A stretch of DNA of 64,000 nucleotides from Eledone cirrhosa (taxonomy: Eukaryota): NCBI GenBank assembly GCA_964016885.1, contig OZ024741.1, forward strand, positions 311,302,001 to 311,366,000, given 5' to 3'. Shown here piece by piece: positions 31,139 to 56,686 of this stretch. Position numbers and translations under genes: made by a program. Numbering within the stretch: position 1 is the stretch's first letter; the number at the start of each line of letters is the position of its first letter. The notes below the pieces were generated by a model that was not told the origin of the DNA, did no database searches, and was given only the letters and a program-made list of their open reading frames with translations.

Positions 31139-31139
31139 T

Positions 31140-34100: not shown

Positions 34101-35438
34101 TTTGTAATGGCACAAGACTCATCATCAAAAGTATGATGTCCAATGTTCTAGAAGTTGCAATCATGTTAGGGAAATTTGCTGGTGACAATGGTTTCATTCC
34201 CAGAATACCTCCGAAGCCAACTGATTTGCCATTTGAATTTCAAAGAATTCAGTTTCCAATCAGTTTCAGTTTTACCATGACCATTAATAAATCTCAAGGT
34301 CAATTATTGAAAGTCGTTGGGTTGAATCTGGCAGATCCTGGCTATTCACATGGTCAACACTATGTTGGCACAACAAGGGTTGGGAACCCTGATTGTCTCT
34401 TCATTGTGGCACCACAGGGCAAAACCAAGAATGTTGTTTATCCAGAGGCTTTGGAATGAACAATGTCGTAATACCTCATTCAATGACAATACACACAGAT
34501 CCTAATTCCTTAGTCATGTAGTTTGCAAGGAATTCTGAAGCCGCAAATTTACTGCATGGTGTTACTTTGGAAGAATATGCAGGCATTCCCGGGTACCTCT
34601 GCTATATAAGTGAGGACTTTGTTGGGTAGAAATAGCAGCCAAATTTCCTTCATATCCCACCTTTGTTTGTCAGGTATGTATATATATGTATGAAGCAAAA
34701 AGGAATGGTTCTATGCGATAACTCGGTCTACTAGAAATATTAGCAAAATCCATTTTAAATCACAAAAAACTGTCTTACACACACACATGTGTGTGTATGT
34801 ATCTATGTATGTCATGTGAGCCACTATAACTGTTGGTATAGCAAATATAAATAGAAAACAAATCTCCCTCAAATAAGATACTACTGCCATAGAGTCAAAG
34901 CTACAGTGTACAAATTTAAATACACTTTCCCCGAATTACAGAAATGTGTAAGTAAATGCTTCGTTCAATTATAAACCAATGCTAAATATATTTTCTTATT
35001 TTATTTATGGTTTTTAAAATAGCCTTTACATGTTGTTTGGATTTCTATATGTTGTTTGAATTTCAGAGGTTCAGATTGTCAAAAAAATAAAATAAAATAA
35101 AAAATAAGAAAGAAAAGGATAAATAAAAAAAACAATCTAAACGTATATTTTGGGCCATGCCCTTTTCACTGACAACATGCCTAATGATTCATCAATGTGT
35201 AGAGTATTATATATGCTGAATGTAATAGGTAGCAGTATTCAAAAAGTCACCACTGGAAAAAAACTAATATTTTTATCTAGATGATTTACTTTGACCAAAC
35301 GGCAATAAATATTCTGCTATAATTCCTACTTTGGCTAAATTCAGCAATCATGTTTGAATGGTCAAATATCTTGTAATGTGCGTCAAATATATTGTAACTT
35401 TCATAAGATAACCGGGTATCACCGGGTAACTCAGCTAG
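31140..35438 (+). mobile_element. Helitron copy 1 (canonical RepHel, internally deleted; pseudogene 31899-34459)
   Basis: Zn motif CQYCDAKKW...CCSKG. PIF1 motifs DAPVGTGKT, IIWDE, AGDFRQTLPV, RNLDPPKLCNGTRL, TINKSQGQ. 3' end ccgggtatcaccggg...CTAG at 35435-35438. Confidence 0.9.
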
Positions 35439-36605
35439 TCTATCTAATATATATTTGTGAAATGGGCGGTGGTTGAAATTCAAATGTGCACGGTTAAATG
35501 GTAGTAGACGTGGTCGGACTGACATGAAAATTTACACACCTATGTAAAAAGTGCCAAGGAAGCAAATAGAAGAGGTTTCAAATCTTTATCTTGAAAAATG
35601 TGGTCCCTGGGGCCACAAAACTATCGCGTTCGGTGAGTTATTTCCCCCTGTTCTAATACTTTTGTCTTATTTACAATTTCATAATCATCGACATTGCTAT
35701 TTCGCTGTTATTAAACTATCATCCTTCTACATTTAACGATCATAAAGTACCGTTTTATGAAATCGATTCTGCAGTACGGTCACTGTTTTCCATCAAAATA
35801 AATAAAACCCTTGGCGATACTTGGTTTTAGTGTCCTAAATTATCATCATCGACATTCAATTTTTAGCTCCACCCACTACACGATACGTCACGAAGGTAAA
35901 TGTTTCGAAAAAATTTTAAACTGTATATCGCAACAATATATTGTTTAAAGAAATTTTTTTCTGTTGTTAAAAACTGTAAATCTGTTTTAAAAAAATGTAT
36001 TTCGCAGCAATTTTTTTTCTGTTAAAAAAATGTAAATAAATATTCATGTAAAAATGAAGCATAGTTTTTCTGTGAAAAACTGTAAATAAATATTTATTTT
36101 GTTCAAAAAATAAATAAAAATCTAATTTTCTCTGTTAATATTTTAATAAATATTTATTCTAAAAATTCAATGTTTTTTCGTGTAAAAATGAAGCATGATA
36201 AAATGAACATGTAAAAATCAAGCCGCAGCAGCAGCTGATGACGTGTCGTGACGTTCGTGTAGTAGGTGGAGCTAATAATTGAATGTCGATGATGATAATT
36301 TAGGACACTAAAACCAAGTATCGCCAAACCATTAAATTGTTTTTATTTTCATTCTAATACATGTTAACCACCACTAACAGTAAGTAGTATTTTTCAAATT
36401 GCATATCATCGTCATTGCTATTTCGCTGTTAATAAACAACGCTTTTCACGTCGCTCCACTTCTCATTGTAGGTCGTCCAACCCCAAGTGCATATTTCTAT
36501 TTTTTTTTCCTGAAACTGCTTCTTTATAATAAACTTTCAATAATATTTTTCAAATTATTAACTCAATAAAACGTGGCCCCACGTGCAACCGGGCTCAGCT
36601 GCTAG
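35439..36605 (+). mobile_element. Non-autonomous Helitron, head-to-tail with its neighbours
   Basis: Starts TCtatctaatatata immediately after the previous CTAG. Ends gccccacgtgcaaccgggc...CTAG at 36602-36605. Confidence 0.7.
35811..36327. mobile_element. MITE/foldback-like element with ~82-bp terminal inverted repeats, nested in the non-autonomous Helitron
   Basis: 35811-35893 (ttggcgatacttggttttagtgtcctaaattatcatcatcgacattcaat...) and its reverse complement at 36246-36327. AT-rich interior with aaaactgtaaat sub-repeats. No clear TSD. Confidence 0.75.
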
Positions 36606-37675
36606 TGTATATATAAATGCAAGTTTACGATTGTGTGTGTCCGCCTAAAACTAGCAAACTGCCGGCCCAAACTCCTCAAAATTACATGTACATATTCGCT
36701 ATACACTCGGACATGTAACCATCGAAAAAGATTTACTTTGCAAAGCAAGGAATTCATTTAAATTCAATTTATCTTATTTTCTAATGAATATCAAAAGAGA
36801 TCATCCATTTTGTTTTTTTATGTTCTCCAGTCTATAGATAAGAGAGTGAGGGATGGGAAGAGAGAGAGTAAGGGATTAGAGAGAAAGAGAGAGAATGGCA
36901 GATGGGAGAGAGAGTAAGGCAATCAGAGAGAAAGAGAGTGAGTGAGTGGGAGAGAGAGAGTAAGGGGATGTGAGAGAGAAAGAAAGAGAGTAAGGGATGA
37001 GAGAGAGAGAGAGTAGGAGATGGGCGAGAGCCAGTAAGAGGATGTGAGAGAGAAAGAAAAAGAGCAAGGGGATGAGAGAGAAAGACGATGAAAGAGAGAG
37101 AGGCAAAGTAATCAGCGTTCTTAACTTTTATTTATTTATTATTTTCACACACTTTTTAACTCTCCCGCTTCCTTAACGTTATTTATCTTTTCTTTATTTT
37201 GTGTTCTCTATTCCGTAGACAGAGGAGGGATGTGGAAGAGAAAGAGAGAGAGAGAGAGAGAGTAATGGGATGGGAGAGAGAGAGTGAGGGAGAGTAGCAA
37301 GCGTTCATTAACTTTCATTTATTTTTTATTTTTACACACTTCTTAACTCTCCCAATGTTATTTATCTTTTATATATTTTTGGTTTGCTATTGTGTAGAGG
37401 TTCAGAGAGAGAAAGAAAGAGATGAGAAGAGAAAGGGAAAGGGAGTGAGGCGGATGGGAAAAAAAGACAATAAGAAAAGAGAAAATAGGGGAGAGAAAAA
37501 AAAGTAAAGAGGCAGGAGAGAGGGAGAGGGTATTGGAGGGATCCTTTAACGAACACGTGTCCGCGTTTATATATATATATATACACACACATGTGTGTAT
37601 TATGGATGGGGGGGGGGGCGTTCTTTAGCAGACGATATATGTTACCATCAAATTTATTTTCTACATATGTCTAAA
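36606..37675 (+). mobile_element. Helitron copy 2, 5' part
   Basis: Begins tgtatatataaatg (TC-like start) right after CTAG. 37150-37675 is collinear with 31150-31718 of copy 1. Confidence 0.75.
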
Positions 37676-39123
37676 GAAATCAGATGCTTTTATAGAAGTT
37701 GTATCTGTTAGAACACGAAAAGTGTGAAACAACAGAATGTTCACTTTTCGTGTTCTAACATATATGCCTAGCTTATCTAAAAATTTTTCGGGGATAGCCG
37801 TGGTGGTGGTGATCGTATGTCATTGGCTAATTTTCAACCAATCAGAGTACCTCTCTCTATATCTCTTCCACTGTTACTTACGCCTGTTTCTCTCTATCTG
37901 TTCCGTCTCTATTTATATCTCTTACGCTTTCGCTTTGCACTCCTCCCCTTCAATACCATCTCTCCCCCTCTCTATATATTTGTTACTCTATCGCTGCACG
38001 CTCCTCTCCTTCAATATATCAATTTCACACGCTTTACACTCCTTTATCCCCAGCGCCCCTATATATACACCCCCCCTCTCCCGCATCTATATTTTAATGT
38101 ACCGTTGCACCGTGAATATATGTGTCTATATATATATACATATATATTGTATATACACATTCATGTATGTGTATACACATTCATGTATGTATATACACTG
38201 GTTTTATGTGTGTATTGTAAATTTGTACTGTTAAAACACGAAACTAACATTCGATTGACACTTTGATTACCTGTACAGGCAATAGTTATTAGAATGCTGT
38301 TGAAGTGTGTATATATTTTTGGGGGACATCCTGTATATACACACATTATATATAATACAATAAACAGATAAATACACACATATATATATGAGCTTATTTA
38401 ATTATAAATATTGTGAATTTTTAACTCAGTTCAATTATATATATAAATGGCTTCTACAGGACTAGAACTGTTTCATTCGAAAGAAATCATCATAATATTG
38501 AGAGGGGGGACTAGATAAAATATTTCAAATCAAATGTGTATAAGTTATAAGTTAAAATGTATAAATAGAGACGATAGTGGAGGTATATCTGTTTAGTGGA
38601 ACAGTAGACGATAGAATTAAATACAGACGATAATCTCCCTTTAATGAAACAGCAGACGATAGAATTAAGGCAATTTAAATTTTAAGCATTTGCATTTTTG
38701 CCTTTCATCGTTACGGGGTCGATAAAATAAAGTACCAGTAATACACTGTCACTAGACGACTTTCAAATTGAATTGTTGGTTCCATTTCTTTAGTATTTTC
38801 AATTGTAGTTATCTACTTAAAAAGCGTTACACGGTTAGAGACATAATTCGTAAGTTATATCTTCCCTATTAAACCATTGCATTATTTCGCCTACAATAGA
38901 ACAAAAATGAAATGTTCTTTAAAGAAACAGGAATATAACTTTATAAAAAAAAAAGTTGCATCCGCTTCTTTTATCATTGATAATTTTTTCGTTTTAATAT
39001 TAATTGTTTTTTGTAGTTGTTTATATTAAAAATCTTACTGTAATATTTACTTAAACGAAGGCAAACATCTAAACTTATAGATTAATCTTGAGCGAAGGAC
39101 TAGATAAATCTCTCTCTCTCTCC

Positions 39124-39175
<52 letters not shown>

Positions 39176-39428
39176 GAAGAATGATAAAATTTCAAGCAAA
39201 GAGTTTAATTAGGTATATTTTGTAATATTATTAACTAATTATTATAATTAACGCTTCAGGCTTTGTCTATATACTGAAACAAATTTGTAAGTCATTACCT
39301 AATTAAACTCTTTGCTTGAAAATTTTATCACTCTTCGTTTTGAATTTCTCCTAAGTATTCAATGCTCTGTTGAGAAATACATTTTACATAAACAGTCTTT
39401 GTACCATTTATACGGTATTAATTACTTA

Positions 39429-39501
<73 letters not shown>

Positions 39502-39561
39502 CGTATGAACCGCCAAGTAGCGAGGTATCACTGTATATATGTTTAAATATATAGTGTAGCT

Positions 39562-41877
39562 GTGATGTATCTCGCGAGTGAATCGAGACCTGTCACTGAT
39601 TTTGGTGTCCCCACTGCCGATGTGAATGAGCAACGCTGCACTTGTGAATTGGGTCTTGATGTTGCAGGCAGTTCATATACTTACAATGATGCGGTCCCAC
39701 AAGCTTGTTCACATTCCTGTGCTAATAATCTAGATGGGCATATTAAATTGGATGTGAAAGCAGCTTACCGGATGCGGAATCGGGAGAAGTTGAGACAAAA
39801 ACAGGCCGATTATAGAGCTGTGAATTTTGCTAAATTAACACAAAAACAGGCCAAGTATAGATGTTCAAAACGGTATGAGTTGGCAAACAAGCAGGCCAAG
39901 TATAGATCTGCAAATTCAGCTATTATATCTCAAAAGCAAGCCGAGCGTAGAGCTTCTAAACGTACCGAGTTGGCTAAAGAGCAGACCAAGTACAGATCTG
40001 CAAATCAAGACAAAGTATTACAAACAAAGGCTATGTATAAAATTCACCATAAAGATAATATACAGTCTTATGAGAAAACATATTATAAAAAAAAGTTTCT
40101 TCATAAGCGGTCTTTGTATCAAATGAAGAAACTAAATAAAATGGTTGACTTCCGGATGCAGCATCAGATCTTGATGTCCCAATTTGTTAAGTCATATAAA
40201 AAGACAATAACAGATACCAATCTTCGCAACGACGCATATAGTCACGTGCTGAGTGTGTTCTCCAGATCTGTTGGGATGCGAAATTTTGTGTGTGCTCAAT
40301 TAAAAATAAATGTTAAAGCTGTGCATACATTGATGGAAAAGGTCAATGCTAACGGTTTGTTGCATTATTGGGGAAATCAACATTATCACAGTTCCACCAA
40401 TGAGCTTCCTAATTTTGACAAGAGCACTGCGAAGTACATGAAAATGGATGAGTTTAAAAATCAGTCCGTTGAGAAAGTCCGAATAGTCGTTATCAATAAT
40501 GAGGAGACAGAGAACATTGTGAATGACATGGCTAATGCTGACGAGCAGAATGATGATAATGATGTGTCTAAATGTTTGGTTAGACCTTGCGGGTCTTCCA
40601 TATTAGATACATGTCCAAATGACTCAGCTACTCGTCTAACTTTGTGCCAAAGAATTGATGATAAACTTCCAAAACTCAATCCCGATATGACAGTTGCTGA
40701 AATAAGGCAGTTGATCGAGAAATATGAGTTTTGCAATGTTACTCATGATAATGATCAGCAATGCATCGGTCAAACTGGCTGCACCAGTGAATTTGGCTTT
40801 TTAAAATCCATAGCAGTTCACTCGCCAAAGTTGCGCACATTGCTGAGGAAAATTTATAAAGTTCGGTCCTTATGTATTTGGCTCAACAAGTACAATGAAG
40901 CTGTTTTCAATGGCGATTGGACCAACTTTGAGAATTTGACAGACGTTGCCAACATTGAGCGTGCTATTGCAGTTAAATTCAATAATATGTGCACTGGTTT
41001 CAATGATGTCGAACACACTGATGCAGATGTCATTCATAAATATGGTAATCAAGTTCAAAGATTTCAATCTGAAATTACCAACTATAAAATCCAACATTGT
41101 CATATCTGCAAACTGCGCAAATATAGCAAGGAACTAAAAGTTTGGGATAATTGGAACTCTAGATATTTTAAAACGGCCGTTGCAAAGGATGCAATAACTG
41201 CCAACTACTCTTTGCCTTGCACAGTCTGCACAACATGCACTACACATTTGCGAAACAGTGGGGTGCCTTCAATGGCCTCAATAAATGGCTTGGGCGTTGC
41301 TGCCGTTCCCAAAGAACTTGCTGATCTTAATACATATGAGCGAATACTTGTACAACGGGCCAAATGTTTCGTCAATGTAATAAAACTGGTGCCATACTCA
41401 TTCAAAGGCAATATTTCAGCATGCATTTCCGCTATTAAAGGAATTGCAATTCACTTGCCTTTGCCTATGGACGGAACTATTAACCGCACCATGGATACGT
41501 TACCTGCGCTTCAAGACGACATGCTTAAAATAGTCGTTGATAGCTTGCCTTCGCGGAAACAAATTATCTGGCGTTCAATGGTAGACATGAGTAAAGTATT
41601 GAAGGCACTTGATTGGCTTGCAGCAAACAATGTAATGTATGCCGATGTTAAGATCAATCGCTACGCCGATACGGAAAATGAAAACATTGTCGAGTGCTCG
41701 GGAGTTAATAATGCCAAATTCGATAATCTTTTACTTAAATCGAATGCTGGCATTACCTATGAGCATCACACTGTTAAAGACATGAATCCGTGTCTCCCTG
41801 CAGACACTGACTTGGCTTTGTACAAAATGAAAAGAGTGGAAGGCGATTTCATTGCAGACAATGATAAAAAAACTTGA
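39562..41877 (+). CDS. N-terminal part of a Helitron2/Helentron-like Rep-helicase: basic 15-aa repeats plus Cys-rich DUF6570-like region
   Basis: 771-aa open frame. Seven 15-aa K/R/Q/Y repeats (39781-40095). CHIC...CTVCTTC...P..A..NGL...P.EL..L...E..L, KG...HLP and KV..AL.WL..NN..Y motifs, typical of the region preceding Helitron-like Rep. Start codon uncertain. Confidence 0.8.
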   Translation: MMYLASESRPVTDFGVPTADVNEQRCTCELGLDVAGSSYTYNDAVPQACSHSCANNLDGHIKLDVKAAYRMRNREKLRQKQADYRAVNFAKLTQKQAKYRCSKRYELANKQAKYRSANSAIISQKQAERRASKRTELAKEQTKYRSANQDKVLQTKAMYKIHHKDNIQSYEKTYYKKKFLHKRSLYQMKKLNKMVDFRMQHQILMSQFVKSYKKTITDTNLRNDAYSHVLSVFSRSVGMRNFVCAQLKINVKAVHTLMEKVNANGLLHYWGNQHYHSSTNELPNFDKSTAKYMKMDEFKNQSVEKVRIVVINNEETENIVNDMANADEQNDDNDVSKCLVRPCGSSILDTCPNDSATRLTLCQRIDDKLPKLNPDMTVAEIRQLIEKYEFCNVTHDNDQQCIGQTGCTSEFGFLKSIAVHSPKLRTLLRKIYKVRSLCIWLNKYNEAVFNGDWTNFENLTDVANIERAIAVKFNNMCTGFNDVEHTDADVIHKYGNQVQRFQSEITNYKIQHCHICKLRKYSKELKVWDNWNSRYFKTAVAKDAITANYSLPCTVCTTCTTHLRNSGVPSMASINGLGVAAVPKELADLNTYERILVQRAKCFVNVIKLVPYSFKGNISACISAIKGIAIHLPLPMDGTINRTMDTLPALQDDMLKIVVDSLPSRKQIIWRSMVDMSKVLKALDWLAANNVMYADVKINRYADTENENIVECSGVNNAKFDNLLLKSNAGITYEHHTVKDMNPCLPADTDLALYKMKRVEGDFIADNDKKT

Positions 41878-44800
41878 GTTGTTGTGCTTTCCTTGTCTTT
41901 ATCCAACTGGTCAGTTTGGCATTTTCGTGGACAATAGACCGTTTGGCGCTGTAAAGCCATACATGTTCATAAGAAACAGACTGAATCATAGCGACTCTAG
42001 ATTTCGGCGAGATATACAATATCTCATGTTTTGTCTTGATAAAGCCGACAAGAGAGGCATTGATTCTGGTATATATGCCATCATGAAGACCACCAAAAAC
42101 AGCCGCATGACTATAAGCGAGTTTAGAAGGCGGCTTCATGAAAATGACAGGCACCTAGAGGGCAATTTAAATATGATGATGGCCAATGTCCGTGGTTCCA
42201 AGCAGTTTTGGTCTAGAAAATGTTCAGACTTGATGGCTATGGACGAGAAATTTGGCCCGGCCCACTTGTTCTTAACTTTGTCTTGTGCAGAGTACTTTTG
42301 GCCTGATCTGAGAGAGTTCCTGGAAAAGTTGAATGCTGACATACCAGACATTTCTAGAAAACGCACCAATGAGTTGTGCGCGGATGACGTGGTGGCTGTT
42401 AGCGAACATTTTCACCATCGGTTCACCACCTTTATGAAAGAAGTTGTTAAACATACCAATTCTCCGTTTGGTATTGTCGAGCACTTTTTTTGGAGGTTGG
42501 AATACCAAATGAGAGGTGCTCCGCATGTTCATATGAAATTATGGATTAAAGATGGCCCTATTATGGACAGAGACGACAAGTATGCTATTCAGACGTTTAT
42601 ACAGTCCATGATCACATGTCGCATGCCGTCCAATGTAGAAAGCCCCGTTTTGTCAGACTTGGTGTTGCGTTTTCAACGACATGTGTGTAGTGGATCCTGC
42701 AAAAGGCAAATATTTTCGAGTGGTCGTTTTTACACTCGATGCAGGTTTGGATTTCCTCGTCCTATCGGGAATTTCAATTTGCTTAGCGTCAACGAGTGCA
42801 TAAAATCTCGACACAAAGGTAGAGCTGTCAAAAAGTTGTACAAGCTTGACAGACGACAAGGGGAAGAGTGCATCAATGACTACAATCCTGTTGTTCTGTA
42901 TGTCTGGAAAGCTAATGTCGATATCCAATACATCGGTGAAGATAGCATGATTCTAAACCGATATGTTACTAGTTATCAGACAAAGTCCGAAAAGACTGAA
43001 ACTGAAGGTATTTGGGCTGAGATTGACAAGTCCAAGTCCATTTACTCCAGATACAAGAGTGTCGGACTTAAGCTGATGGGCAAGCGTGATACAGGTGCCT
43101 ATGAGGCTGCAGACAAATTGCTTGGCCACCATTTTTATGGATGCTCTGAAAGCCTCATTTGGATTGGGGCCGATTTGCCTAGTTACCGATCCCACAGGTT
43201 CAGGCCTCAGTATGAACTGGATAAATTGAAACCGTATTCTACCGATCTTTATTACGAGAATATGGTCGAAAATTGGTATCCAAACAGGCCTGATTCGATG
43301 GAGCACATGTGTTTGTATGAACTTGCGAGTAAATACGAACATGTGAATCCAATTGGTAACAGCAATTTTGATGACGACTTCAGGTTGAGAAATAATCTTG
43401 GCTATTTCAAATCTGTGAAAGAGCGGATTGTGAAGTCGCCAAACATTAGATTGACTGCAGATACCTGTGAGCGCTATCACCACAACCTGCTTATGCTCTT
43501 TAAACCTTGGCGAGACGAGGAAAAAGACTTGCTGGGAGGTTGTGAGACTTATAAAGAGTCTTTTGAACAGTGTGCAAACCATTTATCTGAAATGGTCAGG
43601 TTCCAGAATGTGCGCAAACGTTTGGAGAATGCGCTGGAACAAGCCAAACATATTCAAAACGAACCTCAGTCTCATGATAATGATGACCATTCTTGCGGTG
43701 ATCACATGGAGGCGTTGGCAGTTGATGATGCTAATGTCGATTTGCCTTGCATGAGAGATGTCAATGAGGATGCACTGAGGCATAAAGAAAATAAACTGAA
43801 TGAAGTGCAAAGAAAAATTTATGACGATATCGTTGCCGGTATTGACAAACAAGACAAACATTGGGACAACAGCAAACCTTATCCGAGATGTAGTTGCGAT
43901 GATTGTCCACAAGTCTTGAAATTTGTTTCAGGTGTTGGTGGCACGGGCAAGAGTTTTTTGATAAATGTACTGGCTGATAAAATTCAGTACATGTATCCAA
44001 ATGACAATGGCCCGAGCGTAGTGATATCGGCACCCACAGGAATGGCTGCTTTCCAACTCAACGGCATGACTGTTCATCGAATGCTAAAGCTCAAAGTGCA
44101 GCACGGTAAAACTCCCGTGTACGATGATCTACCAAAGGACTTTTTGAAAATGCTGAGGATGGGGCTTCAATATGTCCGACTGATCATAATCGATGAGATT
44201 AGCATGGTCAGTCATTTGCAGTTGGCATTCATTCACTTGAGATTGTGCCAATTGTTTTGTGACTTTGCCCAAGGCATTTCTCCTTTCGGGCGAATGAACA
44301 TTGTTGTTTTTGGAGATTTGCTTCAATTACCGCCTGTTAGAGAAAAGCCGGTGTTTAACAAAGTTACTCACCAAGATGCACAAAGATCATGCATAGGCGT
44401 CAGCAGCCACCATTTGTGGAGGTACTTCAAGTACGACGAGTTGACAGTCAACATGCGTCAGAAAGAAGACTTGGATAATTATGTTGACATGCTCGGCCGA
44501 ATAAGGCTGGGTTCACCACTTGATTCAGATATTGAAATTCTAAATAAGCATAGAATTGATCTCAACGGCAAAGCTTCCATTGATCAGGTTGCTTACAAAA
44601 TGTGTGAGCTGATACAGACTTCTAATTTGAGTATCGTCTGTATCATGCCTCTAAACGAGTCAGTAGAAAAGTTTAACGCTGCAATGCTCAATAAACTTGG
44701 CATTAATACCGTTGAACTTATGGCTATTGATTCGAATATGAGGCAAACCAAATGTCAAAAGAAAACAATAAGAAAAAAGCTGACCACTAAAAAGACTTCT

Positions 44801-46285
44801 GATACTGCTGGCCTTGAAACTGTTCTTAAAGTTGGCGTTAATGCTCGAGTTATGCTTAAACGCAACATCGATCTTGAGAAAGGCTTGTGCAATGGTGCAA
44901 TGGGAACTGTAAAGCAACTCAATTATGAGTTTGGAAAAATTACTTCCATTGACGTTCTCTTTGAGAGTACAAACCAAATTGTTGCCATCAAACGTGTCAA
45001 AGCCGATTACGAATTGTCTCCTAGTGTTTTTATCACTAGAGAACAATATCCCTTGTGCATTGCATATGCAATTTCCATCCACAAATCACAGGGAATAAGT
45101 GTCGATGGAGTCGTTGTTTATTTGGGCACTGGCGTTTTTGCAGACGGTATGGCCTATGTAGCCTTGTCTAGAGCCCGCAAACTGTGCAATGTTTACTTGA
45201 TTGATCTTGATCCAACGAGTTTGATCATGTGCGACTCTAGTGCTTGGAGAGAATACAATTATTTGAGAGAGACCATTAATATGGGACCGCTTCCATTGTG
45301 TAACGTGAGGCCCAACAGTATTGGACAGGCCAAAAAAGCAACTAAAAAAAGTAAATTTGCTATTAATATTGACAGTGGAATGGTCAACTTGGCGAATCCA
45401 AAAAAGGCCAGAACTGAGAAAACGGTTGCAAAGCCGTACATTTCGCTGATCAATGAGAGAAATGCTTGCTTTGTAAACAGCACCATGCAAGTTATACGCC
45501 AGCTGGTGTTGTTGGTTGAACACATTCAGTCCACTGATGATGTTGCTATTCGTGAAATTAGCGATATTATATCGTCATCTGGAACTAAATCGGTCGCAAA
45601 TTTGAGAAATATTCTCGGTGGCAGGTTTAATAATGGTACCCAACAGTGTGCGCACGATTTTTGGAAGCACATTTATCAGTTGTTCTCTAAAAAAATTAAA
45701 CAACTATTCACCTTTGAGGAAAATACTTGGCTCAGCTGCACTAGAAAACACGAGCACAATTGCCCCAGATTGCACAATGATGAATGTTATTGTGCATCGA
45801 TCAACGGCTGTGGCACTTGCACACATATAACTGATGTCAAGTCTGATCTGACGTTGCAGCCTGTTAATGGTCGGCAACAATTCAAAAGCTTGCTCAAAAC
45901 TGATGTTTCGCTCATTAAGAGATGCGATCTGTGTGGCATTGACACCGAGCACTTTGGTACAGTTAACCATGTATTTCCAAACACAATGCGTTACTTGGTT
46001 GTTTATTTGAATAGATTCGAATATACAAACAATCAGATGATCAGAATTGATTCTGAGTTGATGAATTTCTCTCCGAACAAGCAGAGCATTTACGGCCAAA
46101 AATTCCGACTAATCGGCTCCGCCTTGCATTCACTGGCTAGTGCAGACTCCGGGCACTACACCAGCATCGTCCGCAATCAGGACAGATGGTACATTATTAA
46201 CGATGCCGTTTTTTCCAAGCAGCATATAGGTTTCCCGTCGAAACTGCTTAACAACTACTTGTTGTTTTTAGAAAAGTTGAATTGA
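41861..46285 (+). CDS. HUH-Y2 Rep + PIF1 (SF1B) helicase + C-terminal USP/peptidase C19-like domain
   Basis: Rep I FLTLSCAE; Rep II RLEYQMRGAPHVH (His at 42524 and 42530); Rep III YVTSYQTK. Walker A GVGGTGKS, Walker B IIIDEISM, FGDLLQLPPV, NMRQ, SIHKSQG, AYVALSRAR. USP Cys box LINERNACFVNSTMQ, QQCAHDF, His box H...SGHYTS...W..INDA. Confidence 0.9.
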   Translation: MIKKLELLCFPCLYPTGQFGIFVDNRPFGAVKPYMFIRNRLNHSDSRFRRDIQYLMFCLDKADKRGIDSGIYAIMKTTKNSRMTISEFRRRLHENDRHLEGNLNMMMANVRGSKQFWSRKCSDLMAMDEKFGPAHLFLTLSCAEYFWPDLREFLEKLNADIPDISRKRTNELCADDVVAVSEHFHHRFTTFMKEVVKHTNSPFGIVEHFFWRLEYQMRGAPHVHMKLWIKDGPIMDRDDKYAIQTFIQSMITCRMPSNVESPVLSDLVLRFQRHVCSGSCKRQIFSSGRFYTRCRFGFPRPIGNFNLLSVNECIKSRHKGRAVKKLYKLDRRQGEECINDYNPVVLYVWKANVDIQYIGEDSMILNRYVTSYQTKSEKTETEGIWAEIDKSKSIYSRYKSVGLKLMGKRDTGAYEAADKLLGHHFYGCSESLIWIGADLPSYRSHRFRPQYELDKLKPYSTDLYYENMVENWYPNRPDSMEHMCLYELASKYEHVNPIGNSNFDDDFRLRNNLGYFKSVKERIVKSPNIRLTADTCERYHHNLLMLFKPWRDEEKDLLGGCETYKESFEQCANHLSEMVRFQNVRKRLENALEQAKHIQNEPQSHDNDDHSCGDHMEALAVDDANVDLPCMRDVNEDALRHKENKLNEVQRKIYDDIVAGIDKQDKHWDNSKPYPRCSCDDCPQVLKFVSGVGGTGKSFLINVLADKIQYMYPNDNGPSVVISAPTGMAAFQLNGMTVHRMLKLKVQHGKTPVYDDLPKDFLKMLRMGLQYVRLIIIDEISMVSHLQLAFIHLRLCQLFCDFAQGISPFGRMNIVVFGDLLQLPPVREKPVFNKVTHQDAQRSCIGVSSHHLWRYFKYDELTVNMRQKEDLDNYVDMLGRIRLGSPLDSDIEILNKHRIDLNGKASIDQVAYKMCELIQTSNLSIVCIMPLNESVEKFNAAMLNKLGINTVELMAIDSNMRQTKCQKKTIRKKLTTKKTSDTAGLETVLKVGVNARVMLKRNIDLEKGLCNGAMGTVKQLNYEFGKITSIDVLFESTNQIVAIKRVKADYELSPSVFITREQYPLCIAYAISIHKSQGISVDGVVVYLGTGVFADGMAYVALSRARKLCNVYLIDLDPTSLIMCDSSAWREYNYLRETINMGPLPLCNVRPNSIGQAKKATKKSKFAINIDSGMVNLANPKKARTEKTVAKPYISLINERNACFVNSTMQVIRQLVLLVEHIQSTDDVAIREISDIISSSGTKSVANLRNILGGRFNNGTQQCAHDFWKHIYQLFSKKIKQLFTFEENTWLSCTRKHEHNCPRLHNDECYCASINGCGTCTHITDVKSDLTLQPVNGRQQFKSLLKTDVSLIKRCDLCGIDTEHFGTVNHVFPNTMRYLVVYLNRFEYTNNQMIRIDSELMNFSPNKQSIYGQKFRLIGSALHSLASADSGHYTSIVRNQDRWYIINDAVFSKQHIGFPSKLLNNYLLFLEKLN

Positions 46286-47779
46286 ACTTTCACCGCCAAT
46301 GTACAGCAGCAAGCATTTTTTGAAAAATTTGCTTGATCCTAAGAAAAAGTAACAGAGGTTGAGAGATGTCTTGTTATCTCTAACTATTGCTTTGTTTCTA
46401 TTTCTTTAGGGCATTTCTGAATTTATTAGAATATGAATCCAGTCCCACCATTGAGATATATTATCTTCATGGTGAATGTCTGCTGTTTTTTTTACCCTCG
46501 GGAAATTGTGAAATTGGTTTGCAGCTACTATGGCCTTTTGAGATATAATATTGAAAACACATGTCACTCAACCATATTCGTGTGACCATTTTGTCACTGA
46601 ACTATACTCTCCGTATGATATCAATTTTTATGTATTATAATTTTATCAATATTTTATCTTAAATTAAGCATATTTTTATCTATTATTATCTAATTTTATA
46701 AATCTTTTATTTTTTATCCATTATATCAACTACTTTCAATGTTGTATTATATTTTAAATTCCAATGTATTAATTTTTGTACCAGAAACTCTCTAGCGCTT
46801 TAGCATTTAAAGAGACCATATCCGACCATAATTCTCTCGCCTCTTTCTATTCAAACTGGCCATAATTAGCCACTCATACTGATAGTAAGGTATTTTTCTC
46901 AAAACAAATAACATAAAACTCTCGTAGATTCAATATTATATGAGATAATTATATAAGGTAAAGCCTTTTATGTGAAAATACATACACTATTTTTGTGCCT
47001 TTTTTAGCAACACAAAAATCCTCTGATACTTTGGATTAATATGGCTGACTAAAATTATATATCTGCACATTGTGTGGTGTCAACTATATTTTGTTTTGTA
47101 TTTTATGCTTTCTTTAAACATTTTTTTTTTAGTCTTATATTTTAAAAATATATTAAAATAAATTATAAACGTTTTTTATTTACATATCTTTATAATGCAC
47201 CTTCCAATATTGATTGTAACGTTTATTTACTTTTATATGAATGATCTAGTTAATAGTTACTTGTCCATTTGCCAATATAATATGCTTTTGTAAAAGTAAT
47301 TATTAACTATTATATATTAAATTACAAGATTTATTTATATAACATGCTTATAATATTGGTTGTATCATATTTACTTGTATATTTGTCTATATTGTTTGTT
47401 TTGTGTTAAATTATTTTATTATTATTATGTTGGATTATTTTTTTAATTATTATGTTAAACTATTTGTATGTAATATTTAATTTTTTTATTAATTCAACTA
47501 TAATAATCGACATATGAAATTTAAATCAACAATAGGAGAAAAAAAAATATCTTATTGCACAAACAATAATTCTGCACAAATGTTGCTCCATTATTAGATC
47601 TAATGTTGCAACGATGCAGTTAAATGTTGTCTGTGTATTTTAAAAAAGATTTGCTTATAATCTTTTCAAATTTCATTACGCCAATGATTCAAGCTCAAAT
47701 TGACATTATCTAAAACATTGTACAAACAGCGGTGGATTAGCAGTAGTGAACAGATAAATCAGTCAATTTATTAAGATTG

Positions 47780-48435
47780 ACTTGGCATCAATCAGCAAGA
47801 CCTTCATTAGCTGCTCTCCAGCCATCTATTTAAAGCTGTATAAATCTATGGTACGAATACACTTGGAGTTCGCGTCATCAGTCTGGAACCCCTATCTTGC
47901 TCAGAACATTGACCTCCTGGAAACTGTTCAGAGACATGCAACCAAGCGCATACCCTCCATCAGACACCTACCATACCCTGAATATTTTGCTTCCCTCTGG
48001 CAATGGACTTGGTAAACACCCACAAAGTTATTAACCATCCGACCAACAACAACCCCGAACACCTTTTTGATCTCCATGTGTCTAACACGTGGACATGCCT
48101 ACAAAGTCAGAAAACAACACAGCTCCCATGACTTTAGGAAATATTTCTTCATGCTCAGAGTTGCTGAAGGATGGAACAAACTTCCTGCATCAGTTGTTAG
48201 CTGATGACACACTGCATCCTTTAAAACCATCATACATTCCGAAATACACCAAAACTACACCTGATGTCCCCCTTCCATACACATGCACATATGTGTATAT
48301 CATGACTCATGCACTGTTCTTTTTTCCTGACGTTTTTATATTACCCTATGTATTATATATGCACTTTTGATGAGTTGTAGTGCACCTCAGCATTGTACAC
48401 AATATTTTCATTATTATTATCATTATTATTATTAC
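47780..48435 (+). mobile_element. 3' fragment of a CR1-clade LINE with (ATT)n tail
   Basis: LYKSMVRIHLEFASSVWNPY...LETVQRHATKRIPSIRHLPY, then TRGH...FF..RV...WNKLP-like remnants. Confidence 0.8.
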
Positions 48436-48904
48436 ACTCATTGATCCATTTTGCACTAACTCTGCATCAAGCACCCTCACCTAAATATTAACCAATCAAG
48501 GATCCAATACAGCTATCTGTTGGATGAGTATTGTATAGTGCCAAAAACGAAACCAATCAGTTTAGCAGAAAGTTTCCAGACAAGAAACACGCATATTTTG
48601 CTATCCTCAAACACGTTTACACATGGCATGAAATATAACTAATCCGAGATGGCTAGGTTTCATCTTCTAACTGGATATACGAAATCTATTATGTCTTGAC
48701 AACAACATGAGGTAACATTATGTTATTCACAGACACACTTTGTACACTGTTCCATATCAGAATGTATTTCCTTCGTCACATTCACAAACAGTATTGAAAA
48801 TATGTTCTTCGGCAAATAAAAATGTTTTGTTCATAATATTTCAACTAGCGATTGCTCTACTCCACGCACGACCACCATAAATTAATGACCAGCTCAACAC
48901 AAGT

Positions 48905-49075
48905 TTTGGTAGAGCGTCATACACCATGCTTTGCAGTATTGTTATGGTCCTTTGCATTCTAAGTTCAAATCCTGCCGAGGTTAACTTCGACTTTCATACT
49001 TACTAATTCGATAAAATAAAGTACCAGTAATGGACTGCCGTAATGGATTTGTGCCGAAAAATAGAAACACTATTA
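48905..49075 (+). mobile_element. Nin/Deu-domain SINE, diverged (a smaller fragment is at 38698-38748)
   Basis: aagttcaaatcctgccgaggttaacttcgactttcat...gataaaataaagtaccagtaa...gtgccgaaaaatagaaac. Confidence 0.7.
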
Positions 49076-49624
49076 ATGTGCAATAAGAGCAAAATATAAC
49101 GACATTGCTCAATTATTTTATCTAATGTTGTAATAACACAAGGAAATGTTGTTTGTGTATTTTTTTTTATATTTGCTCATAGGCTTTTACAATTTCGCTC
49201 AGCCAACAACTATTAAAAAGTGAGTTGCTTAAGATAACAATTTAATCACAAATTGTTGCTATCTTTTAATACACTCCAACAAGTCATCAAATTATGTACA
49301 ATAAAAACAAATCTTATTAATTTGCTCAGGGAATATAAAGAAAATGTATATACACTGATAATTGCAATTGTATGTAAATATTTTGTTTTTGTATTGTTTA
49401 TTTTATGCTTTCTATTATGTATAATATATTGATTTAATATTGATTGTTTTTTGTAGTTGTTTATATTAAAAGTCTGAAAATATTTTTATACATCTTACAC
49501 TAATATTTATAAGATAATTTAGAATAACAATTACATAATCTAATTACATTACAACGATAATTTATTATTAATATATATCCTGTTTAACTAGAGTTATTAC
49601 AAGCGTTGCCTTAAAAAAATATTA

Positions 49625-50583
49625 AACTAGACATGAAAAATGCGCAAGCTCAAAAGTGCCACAGAATGTTATAATAAACCTTCAAAAGTGTGGGACTAGA
49701 GTTGTTGCTAAAAAATATTGTAATCATTATATATCGTACATTCTGTGGCATCCTTTATAAAAATAGCTTAAACCAACGAAGCCTTTATTTTTACGCTATT
49801 TCACTTAGTTAATTCTTAGAGTGTAACATATAAAAATAAATACATCTATGTTTAATGTAATAACAGCTATAAATAATTACGTAATATTATTATCATATAC
49901 TCATAGTAACAAAATAATTGTGTTGAAACTTAATATGATGCTTATATGAACGATCAAATCTATAATGATAATTTCTTAAATATACTAATAGTAAAATAAT
50001 TTAGTTATCTATTGTTACATTTTCATAGAACTATAATATTAACAATCGTATTGCATTATCAAATTTTTATCACTACAAACTTTCATATTGGAATTACCTT
50101 AAGCCACTTATTATTACTTCGCTTTCGTACTTTTACAGCTGTAGATATTGCGCTGTATCTTATATCTAATATCAATATCTCATGGTAATTTGCATGAAGT
50201 GTAAAATAGGTTTATTAATAACTTTAATATGAAATGTATTATACAGGGCTGCGGAGTCGGCCAAAAATTGACTGGCTCCAACTCAGGATCCGATACTCCA
50301 TTATTTCCTAAATTTCAGCTCCGCAGCTCTGTTATTATATTAATTAATTTATTTTATAGTTGTAAATCATATTTTTATATGTTACACTCTAAGAATTAAC
50401 TAAGTGAAATAGCGTAAAAATAAAGGCTTCGTTGGTTTAAGCTATTTTTATAAAGGATGCCACAGAATGTACGATATATAATGATTACAATATTTTTTAG
50501 CAACAACTCTAGTCCCACACTTTTGAAGGTTTATTATAACATTCTGTGGCACTTTTGAGCTTGCGCATTTTTCATGTCTAGTT
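49625..50583. repeat. Foldback element: 214-bp inverted repeats (49625-49838 / 50370-50583), 531-bp AT-rich spacer
   Basis: The arms read as exact reverse complements by eye. Outer ends aactag...ctagtt. Confidence 0.9.
50244..50331. mobile_element. 88-bp hAT-like MITE
   Basis: TIRs CAGGGCTGCGGAG / CTCCGCAGCTCTG. 8-bp flanks gtattata / ttattata. Confidence 0.7.
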
Positions 50584-50725
50584 ATATATGTATGTATTTA
50601 AAGACGAAAAAAAAACGGTATTTTTAACAGATATTACTTGAATATATTATTTTCCGCTGTTATTTGAATTAACACAGAAAATATTTTTTTTGTAGTGTTT
50701 TTTTGGATACAATCTGAAATCCCAA

Positions 50726-53700
50726 TATTTTCTAAATATGTCTAAATTTAATTACACCTAATATACATTCATATAAAGAGATCATTAAAAACAACTTTAC
50801 TGATTTGTTTCTATTTCGGAAACAGTGTGTAATAATTGTTTCTAATTTTGGCATAAGGCCAGCAATTATTCCAGTGCATTACTGGTACTTTATTTTATCG
50901 TGTGGTGTGTAATAATATCACTTCAAATGCCTAGAAAACGTTCCAGATCATTATATGGAAGGTCGTCTTCAGAGACTAAGAGAAAGATAACTCAGCGATC
51001 TGAAGAAAGTGAAGAAGTTCGGCATGCCCGTCTAACTGCTAACAGAGCCCAAACAGCTTTAGCACGAGCACACCGTTTGGATGAAAGGGAACAAAGGACT
51101 GCTGCTACACGAGAACAACAAATTAAGGAACAACAGCAAATCAGACGAAATGATAATCAAGCACATCGTTCTACTGCTCAAGCAGGAGAACAAGCCACAA
51201 GTAAAATGAACTGGCTAATGGGTGCTTTTCCTTATGACCTCCAAAAGGACTACTGCAGTAATCCACAAATCAACATTGGGAAAATGAACAAATGCTGCCA
51301 GTATTGTGGTGCCAAGAAGTGGGCAGCAGAAACACTAAGTCTATGCTGCTCAAAGGCAAAGTGAGCCTTAAAACAATACAAGAAACTCCTGAATTTCTGA
51401 AGAATCTGCTCTTTCGGCATACATCAGAAGCACAACACATCAATAAATACAACATAAAATATAATTCTGCTTTTCAAATGACATCTTTTAGGGCTGTAGG
51501 AATGTCACTGACTTTAGATTCTGTACAACTTATAAAATTCAGGGACAGTGTTACCACTTAATGGGCGGCCTTCTGCCACTTTCACAGGAACCTCACAAAT
51601 TTGTGCAGGTTTACTTCATGGGTGGAAATGAAACACAGACACAACAAAGATGTACCAATGTCCATTGTGGATTGCAATTCTACATAGTCATAAAGTTACA
51701 AGAAATGATTCACCAACATCACATGTACGTCAGTGTATTTAAATATGCACTGGAGCATTTTATCAACACCAGAGATCGTAAAATCATCATTAGGGAAGAC
51801 AAACCCCCAGCTTCAGAACATGAACGCAGATTCAATGCACCTGTCACTGATGAAGTTGCAATCATAATGGTTGATGAACAGCATGAACGACGTGACATTG
51901 TTTTGCAAAAACGAAGTGGACATTTGAAGCGAATTTGTGAAAATCATAGAGCCTATGATTCACTCCAATATCCGCTCATCTTTTGGAATGGTCAAGATGG
52001 ATATCATTTTCAGCTACGGCAGATCAGCCCAGGAAAGGGACAAGAGACTGGCCGATCAATCAGCTGCAGAGAATTCTATGCTTATCATTTCATGGTACGT
52101 GACCACTTCACCCAAGTTCTGCAATTCAAAGAAGTAACCAGCCAGTTCATGGTGGACATGTATGCCAAAATTGAAACAGAAAGATTAGGTTTTCTGCGAA
52201 GGAATCAAACTAATTTGAGGGCAGATAACTACATCCACCTTAGAGATGCCATCAATTCTGATGTTGACTCAAAAAATATTTGCCAGCCAATCATACCACC
52301 ACGAAGCTTCACGTGAGGACCACGTTACATGCATGAACGTACGCAAGATGCAAATGCCTATGTCAGAAAATTTGGTCGGCCAGATCTCTTCATTACATTT
52401 ACATGCAATTCAAACTGGTCAGAAATATCAAATGAATTATTTCAAAATCAAAAACCAAAGGATCGAGATGGTCTCATTGATCGGGCTTTCCATGAAAAGC
52501 AAAAAAAGACTCATCTGGCTCCTAAAAGAAGGAAGACACTTTGGTGAGCTTAGTGCTTGGATGACCACTATTGAGTGGCAGAAGAGAGGTCTTCCTCACT
52601 CTTACACACTAATCTGGTGCAAGGAGAAGATAAGACCAGATGATGTTGATAAGATCATTTCAGCAGAGTTGCCTGATAAAGGTGTTGATTCAGAGCTCTT
52701 TGAAACCATCAAGTCCAAACTCATTCATGGTCCATGTGGAGTCATCAATCCAGCCCCTCCCTGTATGAAAGATAAAAAATGCAGCAAACATTATCCTAGA
52801 GTTTTTATTCGGGAAACTCTGACAATAATGGATACCCCGTTTATCGTAGGCGTAGATCAGAACATGGAGGCAATACGGCAAACCTAACAGTTCGAGGAGA
52901 TGAGCTGACCATAAACAATCAGTGAGTCGTCCCACACAACACATTGTTGTGTAAACTTTTAAAAGCTCATATCAATGTTGAGTATTGCAGCTCCTTCAAG
53001 TCAATCCGATATGTCACAAAATATATCAACAAGGGCAGTGACATCGCTACCTTTATTACTGACAAAGAACTCAATGATGGTGATCTGGATGAGGTCAAAC
53101 GGTATCAAACCGGTCGAAACATTTTCAGCAATGAAACTATCTGGTGAATCTTTGGAGTGATATCCGCCAACGCCACCCAATAGTGGTCAATCTCGCAGTC
53201 CATCTGGAAAATGGACAGAGAGTGTTCTTCACTGAGATCACTGCTCATCAGTTGGCACAAGCATCACATAACACTACACTAACTGCTTTCTTTAAACTCT
53301 GCCAGAATGATGAATTTGCTCGATCACACCTATATGCTGAAGTCCCAACATACTACACCTGGACCGATTGCAAGACCAGGAATCGAAGAAAGCAGGGTCA
53401 TTTAGTGGAAGGTCATGAAGTCAAGTCAAGTCATGCTATTGGGCGTGTTTACAATGTCCATCCCAACAACAGAGAATGTTTTTATTTACGGCTACTTCTG
53501 CATACTGTTCGATTACCAACGTCATTTGAGGATGTTAGATGCTTGAGAGGAAGGGAGTGCGCAACATACCAAGAAACATATAAACAGCATGGACTCCAGC
53601 ATGACAATGGACACTTGAATAAGTGCCTAGAAGAAGCAGCAATCACTCAAGTAGCCAGTCAAGTAAGACAATTATTTGCTATTATGCTCACAGCATGTGG

Positions 53701-56366: not shown

Positions 56367-56686
56367 TACAGGTATAAATGAGATATCAATAAATTTAAGA
56401 TTATGACAAATGAATGAATCTGAATTCGACTATTGAATAATATATTGATACACTACATTACACAGAGAGATTATATTTGAATATAATCTCCCGGAACCAT
56501 ATGCAAGTGACACTCACTGATATTCTTACATTTAGCGACAACAAATAAATTATGTATATATATATATAGGAAAAGAATCAGGACCCCGACGACTGAGCTC
56601 CGACCGCTTCGTCAGCTAGCTCGGGACTCCATCTGGTATCTTACCACACCTTTATTCTTATATATATATACATGTATATATATATA

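Follow-up and report, generated by a model that had tools for sequence, protein, structure and literature searches.

Two copies of a Helitron1 element lie in the 64,000-nucleotide stretch of Eledone cirrhosa DNA analysed here (the window), and the second is interrupted by a 13-kb block carrying a transposase gene (Table 1). Self-BLAST of the window placed the break of full-length copy 2 at 37675/50726: positions 31139-31718 of copy 1 matched 37135-37675 and positions 31698-32632 matched 50726-51694, the remainder of copy 1 being collinear with copy 2 as far as 56367. The two host copies were 6.5-11% divergent from each other, identity next to the junctions was 91% on the left and 93% on the right, and homology ended at both block junctions. 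Without the block, copy 2 measures about 6.7 kb: it starts at 36606/7, directly abutting the CTAG|T end of another Helitron, and closes with a CTAG|T end of its own at 56367; it is therefore one interrupted element. The 3' rule of Helitron1 (hairpin plus CTRR) was found in this host copy. The complete Helitron1 (HLE1) signature, comprising 5' TC, 3' hairpin plus CTRR, an A|T target and no target-site duplication (TSD), was absent from the block, which ends without CTRR.

The block is flanked by 21-mers (37655-37675 and 50726-50746) with a single mismatch between them. The site occurs once in copy 1, with one mismatch to the left repeat and two to the right one, and one base common to both flanking repeats is absent from copy 1. 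Within two mismatches the 21-mer was found at only three places in the window, and it gave 0 matches in 60 local Markov simulations. The insertion, its imperfect 21-bp repeat and the empty site in the sister copy, as given in a preliminary description of this DNA, were thus confirmed by self-BLAST.

Table 1. Features of the interrupted Helitron1 and of the inserted block (window positions).
Feature	Position	Strand	Remarks
Helitron1 copy 1, 5'-truncated	31140..35439	+	empty site 31698-31718
Host Helitron1 copy 2, left part	36607..37675	+	5' end to insertion
Target motif TTATTTT, then C	37654..37660	+	fits published Helitron2 targets TTTT|T/C and TNAT|T (PMC5148889, PMC3627910)
Putative 15-bp TSD, left copy	37661..37675	+	6 + 15 split probable
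Four extra bases between duplication and putative 5' terminus	37676..37679	+	donor flank, filler or part of terminus
Putative autonomous Helitron2 (HLE2), 13,052 bp	37680..50731	+	candidate ends, placed from one copy
Candidate 5' terminus	37680..37707	+	TCAG and bulged hairpin from base 2, -3.1 kcal/mol
Second 5'-type module	37702..37764	+	TATC, then perfect 19-bp-stem hairpin (37706-37760)
Relic of 5' hairpin motif	38222..38250	+	interior deleted; third 5'-type end
43-bp repeat	38993..39035	+	41/43 to 49433-49475; no other match in window
Long imperfect hairpin upstream of gene	39172..39340		stem of about 45 bp
Transposase, N-terminal ORF	39547..41877	+	45-bp repeats, DUF6570; first ATG 39565
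Transposase, C-terminal ORF	41831..46285	+	Rep, Pif1 helicase (Walker A/B), USP domain
Decayed LINE-like 3' fragment, passenger	47720..48432	+	ATT tail; no Pfam match
Old SINE-like copy, passenger	48902..49080	+	label from A/B-box-like motifs by eye
Long subterminal inverted repeat, left arm	49599..49838	+	perfect 49625-49838; ACAAG at 49599
Long subterminal inverted repeat, right arm	50370..50583	-	214/214 complementary to left arm
Candidate inner asymmetric terminal inverted repeat	50622..50633	-	11/12 to 37702-37713; weak hairpin 50648-50683 and T run follow
Candidate outer asymmetric inverted repeat	50706..50717	-	complementary to 37680-37685 plus 37700-37705
Candidate 3' terminus ATATTTT	50725..50731	+	identical to 3' terminus of FoHeli1/2
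Putative 15-bp TSD, right copy	50732..50746	+	1 mismatch
Host Helitron1 copy 2, right part	50747..56367	+	decayed RepHel; hairpin-CTAG end

DUF6570, Helitron_like_N, PIF1 and UCH domains were found over two overlapping open reading frames (ORFs) of the block, separated by one frameshift within a run of seven A, in agreement with the Rep-PIF1-USP gene previously noticed there. The catalytic motifs are intact: HUH H232/H234 and Y378/Y382 in Rep, Walker A/B in the helicase, and C1213, H1442 and D1458 in the USP domain. An HUH Y2 Rep is fused to a Pif1 helicase in one RepHel transposase, with DUF6570 upstream of Rep, as in Helitron2 (HLE2); according to Li et al. (2024, PMC11417382), DUF6570 is a marker of HLE2 and UCH is enriched in its subgroups c and d. 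No stop codon was present in the 6.8 kb of the gene, whereas 14 would be expected at 4.5% decay. The C-terminal domain was UCH and not the AP endonuclease that strictly defines Helentrons (Thomas et al. 2014, PMC4067079), of which none was found in the block.

The full DUF6570-Rep-Pif1-UCH layout was present in 9 of 68 homologue matches. In a quick tree of 38 rows, selected for their domain labels and a cover above 700 aa and including no HLE1, curated reference or FoHeli rows, the window protein grouped with DUF6570-bearing UCH/OTU proteins; it fell in a group of seven with a support of 99, outside the endonuclease-bearing clade, and five of the seven (the window protein included) have UCH. 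The architecture is already known and the USP fusion itself is ordinary. An OTU-to-USP swap peculiar to the block element had been suggested by UCH in 4 of 108 matches, and was rejected on the basis of the 9/68 count and the composition of the tree group. We regard the USP domain as a putative accessory deubiquitinase. Of the large cargo-carrying rolling-circle element proposed in the preliminary description, the rolling-circle nature and the unusual integration footprint held, but the gene cargo did not, the USP domain being fused to the transposase as an ordinary Helitron2 domain and the other passengers being repeat relics. Fanzor1 was absent from the block, where no stop-free frame on the right side of the gene exceeded 94 aa and any longer frames on the left were of low complexity; curated Pfam gave 0 matches in the 16 of 20 non-gene frames scanned, and no recombinase or reverse transcriptase (RT) ORF was found in the block.

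Among the passengers, the LINE-like fragment is taken by us to resemble CR1/L2, and the SINE-like copy was 17-22% substituted with respect to three copies that are 10-11% apart. ARAGORN reported 0 genes and no tRNA at the SINE-like copy, and Rfam gave 4 matches on a microsatellite, all far under the gathering score. The 43-bp repeat, unique to the block, links both flanks of the gene. The gene (0 stops), the hairpin stem (19/19) and the arms of the long inverted repeat (214/214) are all young, while the host copies are 6.5-11% apart; the inverted part beyond the perfect arms was not significant (p 0.6). The flanks are also tied together by short motifs common to the 5' hairpin and the arms, which formed 4 diagonals, a count that is inflated by the hairpin's own symmetry and was reached by 0 of 257 other windows.

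Both ends of the block presented Helitron2-type signals. A TCAG with hairpin, like the one that lies 4 nt inward of the left repeat, occurs at 0.06% of 44,221 AT-rich positions, and a TCAG-type 5' start was also found in three related loci (L002, L008 and L005) and in FoHeli1/2. The segment 37676-37790 folded better than 200 of 200 shuffles (z -6.4). A 5' T start with hairpin, as in HLE2, is available at two overlapping candidates (37680 and 37702), and the relic at 38222 matched the 5' hairpin motif at 15 of 16 positions (0 matches in 60 simulations). At the right end, the last six bases of the candidate 3' terminus are the first six of the 21-mer. The score of the inner inverted repeat (11/12) was reached by 5 of 489 other windows; since an 11/12 inverted match turned up somewhere in the right flank for 6 of the 7 upstream hairpin candidates used as probes, only its position is informative. 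A 6-bp part of the outer inverted repeat lies no more than 45 nt from 0.9% of the AT-rich positions. These two candidates of the 8-15-bp class (11/12; 6+6) are each found about 1% of the time by position, the terminal motif sets having been selected post hoc from trials of about five sets, either published or observed. Local alignment gave neither an inverted repeat (p 0.19-0.47) nor a direct repeat (four window sizes, p 0.04-0.69) between the block ends above shuffles. The 3' subterminal hairpins were weak, at -4.0 and -1.4 kcal/mol, a stability equalled in 15% of windows, and the remaining upstream hairpins found partners at scattered places only. Ends near the gene (an 11-bp inverted pair at 38647/46478 and an 8-bp direct pair at 39509/46293) were within chance on a rough estimate, and were rejected.

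The target also corresponded to Helitron2. TNATTTT[T/C] was found at 0.4% of the 44,221 AT-rich positions, and the T-rich target of HLE2 (TT, TTTT|T/C) is present at the block. The 21-mer would be better read as 6 bp common to the element end and the target followed by a 15-bp TSD; the duplication would appear as 21 bp because the last six bases of the element match the target. On this 6+15 reading the 15-bp TSD follows the TTTT at 37657-37660 and the 3' end is intact, as in the CRe elements of Chlamydomonas. Against this reading, one mismatch in 15 bp has a probability of 3-8% at the decay of 0.1-0.3% that the gene allows, a poor fit to a young gene. For the four extra bases, the search for a template in nearby flanks returned matches of 7-8 bp only, and templating was rejected.

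We consider it probable that the block is one autonomous Helitron2 (approximately 37680-50731) inserted in a single event at TTTT|C, with HUH chemistry at one end and host repair 15 bases off. One element end would be joined at TTTT|C by its own HUH transposase, Rep nicking and transferring one strand and Pif1 peeling the strand off. The far end would escape the second transesterification; the opposite target strand would break 15 nt away, gap filling would produce the 15-bp duplication, and the far end would be sealed by host repair. The end joined first may be the 3' one, according to the Chlamydomonas data; the relatives compared here show a more constant 5' end. The whole block is then most likely the mobile unit, as had been considered, with Helitron2-type ends near both repeats, and the staggered-break repair suggested earlier is probably part of the mechanism.

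Three related loci of one family (L001, L003 and L004), with transposases 37% identical to that of the block, gave a similar layout. Their length was 11.9-13.5 kb vs. 13.05 kb in the block, the upstream stretch 2.0-3.1 kb vs. 1.9 kb, the distance from the stop codon to the long inverted repeat 2.3-2.8 kb vs. 3.3 kb, and that from this repeat to the end 1.1-1.2 kb vs. 1.1 kb. They start with TA-TCA(G/T) plus hairpin, and relatives carry ACAAG at the outer arm end, like the block at 49599. In the relatives the long inverted repeat reaches the very end (CTTG|TA), whereas the perfect arm of the block stops 148 bp before ATATTTT; by the relatives' rule the block element would therefore end at 50583 or 50692. 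Duplications were found in 0 of 5 relatives with both ends in view (longest near-end repeat 5-7 bp), and direct repeats of 13-60 bp in seven loci were in no case tied to defined ends among the matches listed.

The UCH-bearing HLE2 subgroups c and d of Li et al. (2024, PMC11417382) share with the block DUF6570, Helitron_like_N, PIF1 and UCH without endonuclease, as well as a T-rich target; their short asymmetric inverted repeats and hairpins have candidate counterparts in the block. No TSD is described for them in that paper nor, in the sections consulted, a long subterminal inverted repeat, and it counts UCH among the domains usually outside the RepHel ORF, whereas UCH is fused in the block and in 9 of 68 matches. 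CRe-1, 2 and 3 of Chlamydomonas reinhardtii (Bao and Jurka 2013, PMC3627910) share with the block a variable TSD of 7-19 bp that follows TTTT directly, and their 3' end is likewise intact; some copies also show additional bases between the 5' TSD and the normal 5' end. They are non-autonomous (CRe-1 about 4 kb), carry Fanzor1 and end in CTTGT, in contrast to the presumably autonomous, 13-kb, Fanzor-free animal element ending in ATATTTT. FoHeli1 and FoHeli2 of Fusarium oxysporum (Chellapan et al. 2016, PMC5148889) share TCAG plus hairpin, ATATTTT, TNAT and multiple 5' termini with the block; they differ in their size (5-6 kb), in having no reported TSD and in their inverted repeat, which is 12 bp long and lies 38-51 bp from the end, whereas the outer repeat of the block is 6+6 bp and lies at 14-25 bp. 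For the base that follows the element, the legend of that paper gives T and its text A. Replitron-1 (Craig 2023, PMC10288648) is an HUH transposon with one precise and one fuzzy end and a variable TSD, like the block, but has an unrelated Y1 Rep without helicase and short terminal direct repeats, which were absent from the block with its Y2 RepHel. Helentrons, HINEs and DINE-1 (Thomas et al. 2014, PMC4067079) show subterminal inverted repeats, a 3' stem-loop and T-rich ends, with candidate counterparts here, and no target modification was found in animal Helentrons/HINEs in that work. The earlier premise that Helitrons make no TSD is not universal (PMC3627910, PMC10288648). In the literature searched, neither a TSD-bearing Helitron2 outside Chlamydomonas nor long terminal inverted repeats in Helitron2 were found, and Repbase or supplements could already hold such termini; in the papers found, the footprint is otherwise reported from one green alga only.

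Two steps instead of one would be doubtful, yet form the main rival reading. A small insertion of 59-169 bp, probably a non-autonomous Helitron2-type one, would own the direct repeat, and the autonomous element (37702 to 50583/50692) would have entered it later without duplication. The mismatch between the repeats beside an intact gene is then about 6-fold better explained, the inner boundaries obey the rule of the relatives (TATC plus hairpin on the left, a right flank starting with TA), none of five relatives has a TSD, and self-insertion of FoHeli giving multiple 5' termini is described. On the other hand, bases of the inner element (37702-37707) take part in the outer hairpin and in one half of the outer inverted repeat, and therefore these outer signals would have arisen by chance; bases upstream of TATC recur in the relic at 38222 as well, and such composites reportedly move as units. 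The nested Rep insertion considered in the preliminary description survives in this milder form, with the outer piece around the element no longer than 170 bp; boundaries deep within the block are unlikely because Helitron2-type signals lie no more than 26 bp from the left repeat and 150 bp from the right.

Without any transposase nick at the target, a spontaneous staggered double-strand break at the AT-rich site might have captured a Helitron2 intermediate (a single strand or an opened circle) through end joining. The end product would be identical, and we regard this route as improbable. Four extra bases and 6 bp of microhomology at the block junctions agree with such a capture. Both traits are typical of end joining. 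Joined-end FoHeli molecules also exist. Against it, the site fits the target motif published for Helitron2, which the 3' terminus abuts exactly; the near-palindrome of copy 1 is ordinary, and as 50 of 200 shuffles fold as well, a cruciform at the target was dropped as the cause of a break.

Crossover of a circle at the 21-bp core and TPRT-like insertion, both raised earlier, are very improbable: a LINE-like relic sits inside the block and 21 bp is within the range of LINE duplications, but TPRT lacks support because the block has no RT gene and neither junction bears a poly(A) or repeat tail, and the crossover because a recombinase is missing and the repeat divides into 15 bp and a 6-bp motif common to end and target, the 21-mer being host Helitron1 sequence that a circle would need to carry beforehand. 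It is equally hard to credit that no insertion occurred, with two independent Helitron1 fragments around native DNA or an assembly mis-join: truncated Helitron1 copies are common here (e.g., copy 1), old repeat relics occupy the right part of the block and the homopolymer frameshift hints at sequencing error, but the two parts, overlapping by 21 bp, make up one full-length element, the chance that independent breakpoints coincide in this way is about 0.4% (estimate, 25/~7000 positions), and both junctions bear Helitron2-type signals.

Craig (2023, PMC10288648) asked why target duplications and fuzzy ends of HUH transposons are seen only in C. reinhardtii, the cause being unknown and Fanzor tentatively blamed; a young, Fanzor-free, autonomous animal Helitron2 with the same footprint would make the Fanzor idea testable by footprint counts across the copies of one genome. 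Tentatively, there could be a widespread clade of deubiquitinase-bearing animal Helitron2 with a 140-230-bp inverted-repeat end, whose arms would be re-copied from each other at each transposition through a single-strand panhandle, and with one-ended, Fanzor-free integration and variable duplications. On that reading, long TSDs would be an intrinsic by-product of HUH transposition and not a peculiarity of Chlamydomonas. In the arms of the relatives, seven copy-specific variants were present in both arms vs. one arm-specific variant. The long subterminal inverted repeat in elements with 37%-identical transposases hints at a replication step of Helitron2 that was not found described in the searches. 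A reading of the 49625-50583 foldback as a nested MITE was weakened, the same structure being located at the 3' end of relatives, but a long inverted repeat (at least 130 bp and at least 95%) was missing from two of seven long loci (L002 and L005), and in L006, whose element ends are undefined, it was a spacerless palindrome. Such a repeat is prone to mis-annotation as a nested MITE.

By self-BLAST, the sister Helitron1 (copy 1) was collinear with 37135-37675 and then again from 50726 to 56367, with identities of 91 and 93% beside the two junctions and no homology across them. The 21-mers at 37655 and 50726 differed by a single base, whereas copy 1 carried one such 21-mer (1 and 2 mismatches to the block-flanking ones); matches with up to two mismatches were found at only three places in the window and in none of 60 simulated windows. 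Both parts of the interrupted copy 2 summed to a full-length Helitron1 of about 6.7 kb. These observations taken together indicated that the 13-kb block is an insertion with a flanking direct repeat, in agreement with the preliminary description of a block inserted into a Helitron with a 21-bp repeat and an empty site in the sister copy.

The host is one of at least four Helitron1 copies arranged head to tail (window 31110-36606 and 56340-56367), which end at 31139, 35439, 36606, and 56367, each beginning directly behind the preceding end (CTAG, next base T). A reversed SINE-like piece of 70 bp lies upstream of the gene in both Helitron1 copies, and was thus captured before they spread. Another SINE-like copy, whose ends bear a short T-rich repeat, is inserted in copy 2 and missing from copy 1.

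DUF6570, Helitron_like_N, PIF1, and UCH domains were encoded by two overlapping ORFs of the block, separated by a single frameshift within a stretch of seven A. HUH, Y2, Walker, and USP Cys/His/Asp residues could all be identified, and an alignment of 12 proteins showed them to be conserved. Among named proteins, the nearest belong to Octopus bimaculoides (70-72% identity) and O. vulgaris (65%), so that the source animal is probably an octopod. The full DUF6570-Rep-Pif1-UCH layout appeared in 9 of 68 hits (31-37% identity), and in a quick tree built from 38 selected sequences the block protein fell among UCH-bearing, endonuclease-free relatives. DUF6570 serves in HELIANO as marker of the Helitron2 group (HLE2), and UCH is enriched in its subgroups c and d (PMC11417382). 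With these known domains, the shared layout and the tree placement, the gene is a typical representative of a kind already known. It contained no internal stop over 6.8 kb, where 14 would be expected at 4.5% decay, and the host Helitron1 copies differ by 6.5-11%; the gene is thus far younger than its host. Within the endonuclease-free clade (proteins P0002, P0005, P0008, and relatives) the deubiquitinase at the C-terminus is in some proteins USP and in others OTU, requiring at least two changes on the tree. Deubiquitinases of another class borne on Helitrons are active enzymes (PMC9741609).

Three 5'-type signals were found at the left end of the block (see table). The Fusarium oxysporum Helitron2 elements FoHeli1/2 start with TCAG plus a hairpin, end in ATATTTT, insert after TNAT and may have several 5' termini, Helitron2 targets being TTTT followed by T or C (PMC5148889); the target at the block is TTATTTT followed by C. 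Each of these end signals is short, and the motif sets were chosen after looking. The 3' hairpins of the block were weak, and plain alignment of its ends gave nothing significant. The first six block bases are found again in direct orientation 10 bases short of the right end, possibly by chance. Three copies of one 11-mer are present in the 64 kb (0.17 expected), all in the block and on the same strand; two of them lie within a 43-bp repeat.

Coordinates of features in the window and in related contig loci
Feature	Position	Detail
5' signal 1, TCAG + bulged hairpin	37680	4 nt inside repeat; 0.06% of 44,221 AT-rich positions
5' signal 2, TATC + perfect 19-bp hairpin	37702	
5' signal 3, collapsed relic of the 37702 19-bp hairpin	38222	
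Inverted partner of 37702-37713	50622	11/12 match; 5 of 489 other windows
6+6 inverted partner of outer start	50706-50717	
ATATTTT, right end	50725-50731	
First six block bases / direct repeat	37676-37681 / 50716-50721	
11-mer	39007, 49447, 50686	
Long hairpin	39172-39340	just upstream of transposase start
(TA)37 tract	39427-39500	just upstream of transposase start
Inverted repeat arms, block	49625-49838 / 50370-50583	
Inverted repeat, L001	16959-18029	right arm stops about 0 bases from mirrored end
Inverted repeat, L003	16535-17622	about 2 bases
Inverted repeat, L004	16115-17314	about 12 bases
Inverted repeat, L008	14537-15017	about 55 bases
L005 non-autonomous copy	2272-3460 (minus)	1.2 kb
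L006 hairpin and palindromes	1248-1298, 17273-17633, 17892-18220	
SINE-like piece, both Helitron1 copies	31802-31872, 50830-50900	70 bp, reversed
SINE-like copy in copy 2	55765-55955	
LINE-like copies (presumed)	16517-18925 / 27788-30172	opposite orientation
GIY-YIG frame (presumed Penelope-like)	57254-57940	
Inverted duplication	61483-63998	1.1-kb arms

A scan of one contig collection for relatives yielded nine loci, whose richness in repeats suggests that eukaryotic DNA had been placed in prokaryotic bins. Seven of these eukaryote-like, Helitron2-bearing contigs (L001-L006 and L008) are filed as bacterial or archaeal MAG records and protein P0109 is labelled a gammaproteobacterial ATPase, probably through contamination in both cases. 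L001, L003, and L004 formed one family, 93-95% identical, with common boundaries and 11.9-13.5 kb long; these three, L008 and the L005 copy shared a TA(T/A)TC-type start, a hairpin, a 13-15-bp repeat and a long inverted repeat at the end. The L005 copy has the 5' hairpin and terminal palindrome of its autonomous relatives, and the USP-bearing L006 has a long hairpin upstream as well as two palindromes without spacers downstream. The block matched these elements in its proportions and in the long inverted repeat described below, and the comparison is the best evidence that a Helitron2 would occupy 98.7-100% of it, SINE- and LINE-like relics included.

Of the seven long loci, five had a long inverted repeat downstream of the gene (one family accounts for three of the five). 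The block carried such a repeat (214/214) at the equivalent position, its left arm flanked on the outer side by ACAAG as in the relatives. Seven variants in the three-copy family were present in both arms of one copy vs. one that was arm-specific; the arms thus appear to evolve in concert, a pattern that assembly polishing could mimic. In the relatives the repeat reaches the terminus (CTTG, next bases TA), whereas the block extends 148 bp beyond the arm, which counts against our reading. The terminal structure of the block is apparently undescribed: neither a long subterminal inverted repeat nor a TSD-bearing animal Helitron2 was found in the literature searched, which did not extend to the HELIANO supplements, Repbase or the majority of subscription papers.

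With ATATTTT as the terminus of the element, the right 21-mer would begin with six element bases and the left one with six target bases, which would leave 15 duplicated bases directly after TTTT. The same pattern is described for the Chlamydomonas elements CRe-1,2,3, in which the TTTT is followed by a TSD roughly 7-19 bp long, the 3' end is intact and additional bases precede the 5' end, at 70, 57, and 10% of loci (Bao and Jurka, PMC3627910). According to Craig (PMC10288648), such footprints were seen only in C. reinhardtii, their cause is unknown, and Fanzor is tentatively invoked; a Fanzor gene would not fit in the block. For animal HINEs, Thomas et al. (PMC4067079) found no target modification. 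PMC6431247, PMC13085455, PMC9977147, PMC12001565, and bioRxiv 2025.11.13.688278 gave context only. None of the five related elements had a duplication at its ends, which also counts against our reading.

Block anatomy and motifs were observed directly. As to their origin, the main reading and its chief rival (the older insertion below) together make it likely that a Helitron2-type insertion gave rise to the duplication, and we consider it rather probable that one end was joined by the enzyme and the other repaired by the host 15 nt away. The transposase would join one end of the peeled-off strand at a nick in the T-rich target, leaving the other strand end unresolved; the opposite target strand would break 15 nt away and host repair would fill in. 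This scheme draws on HUH biochemistry, which is general knowledge, and on the CRe pattern. In the chief rival, an older Helitron2-like insertion of 59-169 bp, hit later by the autonomous element, would instead own the direct repeat; this better accounts for the 21-mer mismatch (3-8% under one young event) but turns part of the outer end signals into chance, and we hold it unlikely. Capture of the block at a spontaneous break fits worse and is quite improbable. The crossover-type or TPRT-like integration entertained earlier fits worse than Helitron2 insertion and scarcely merits credence, and the same holds for two separate Helitron1 fragments or a mis-join, also a worse fit. The whole case is built on a single copy of the block, which is a real insertion of a known element class with a rare footprint.

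Elsewhere in the window, a GIY-YIG frame without a Pfam hit is presumably Penelope-like, judging from its translation, and two decayed copies in opposite orientation we take, also from translations, to be LINE-like. The right edge of the window is occupied by an inverted duplication whose arms are 97% identical.
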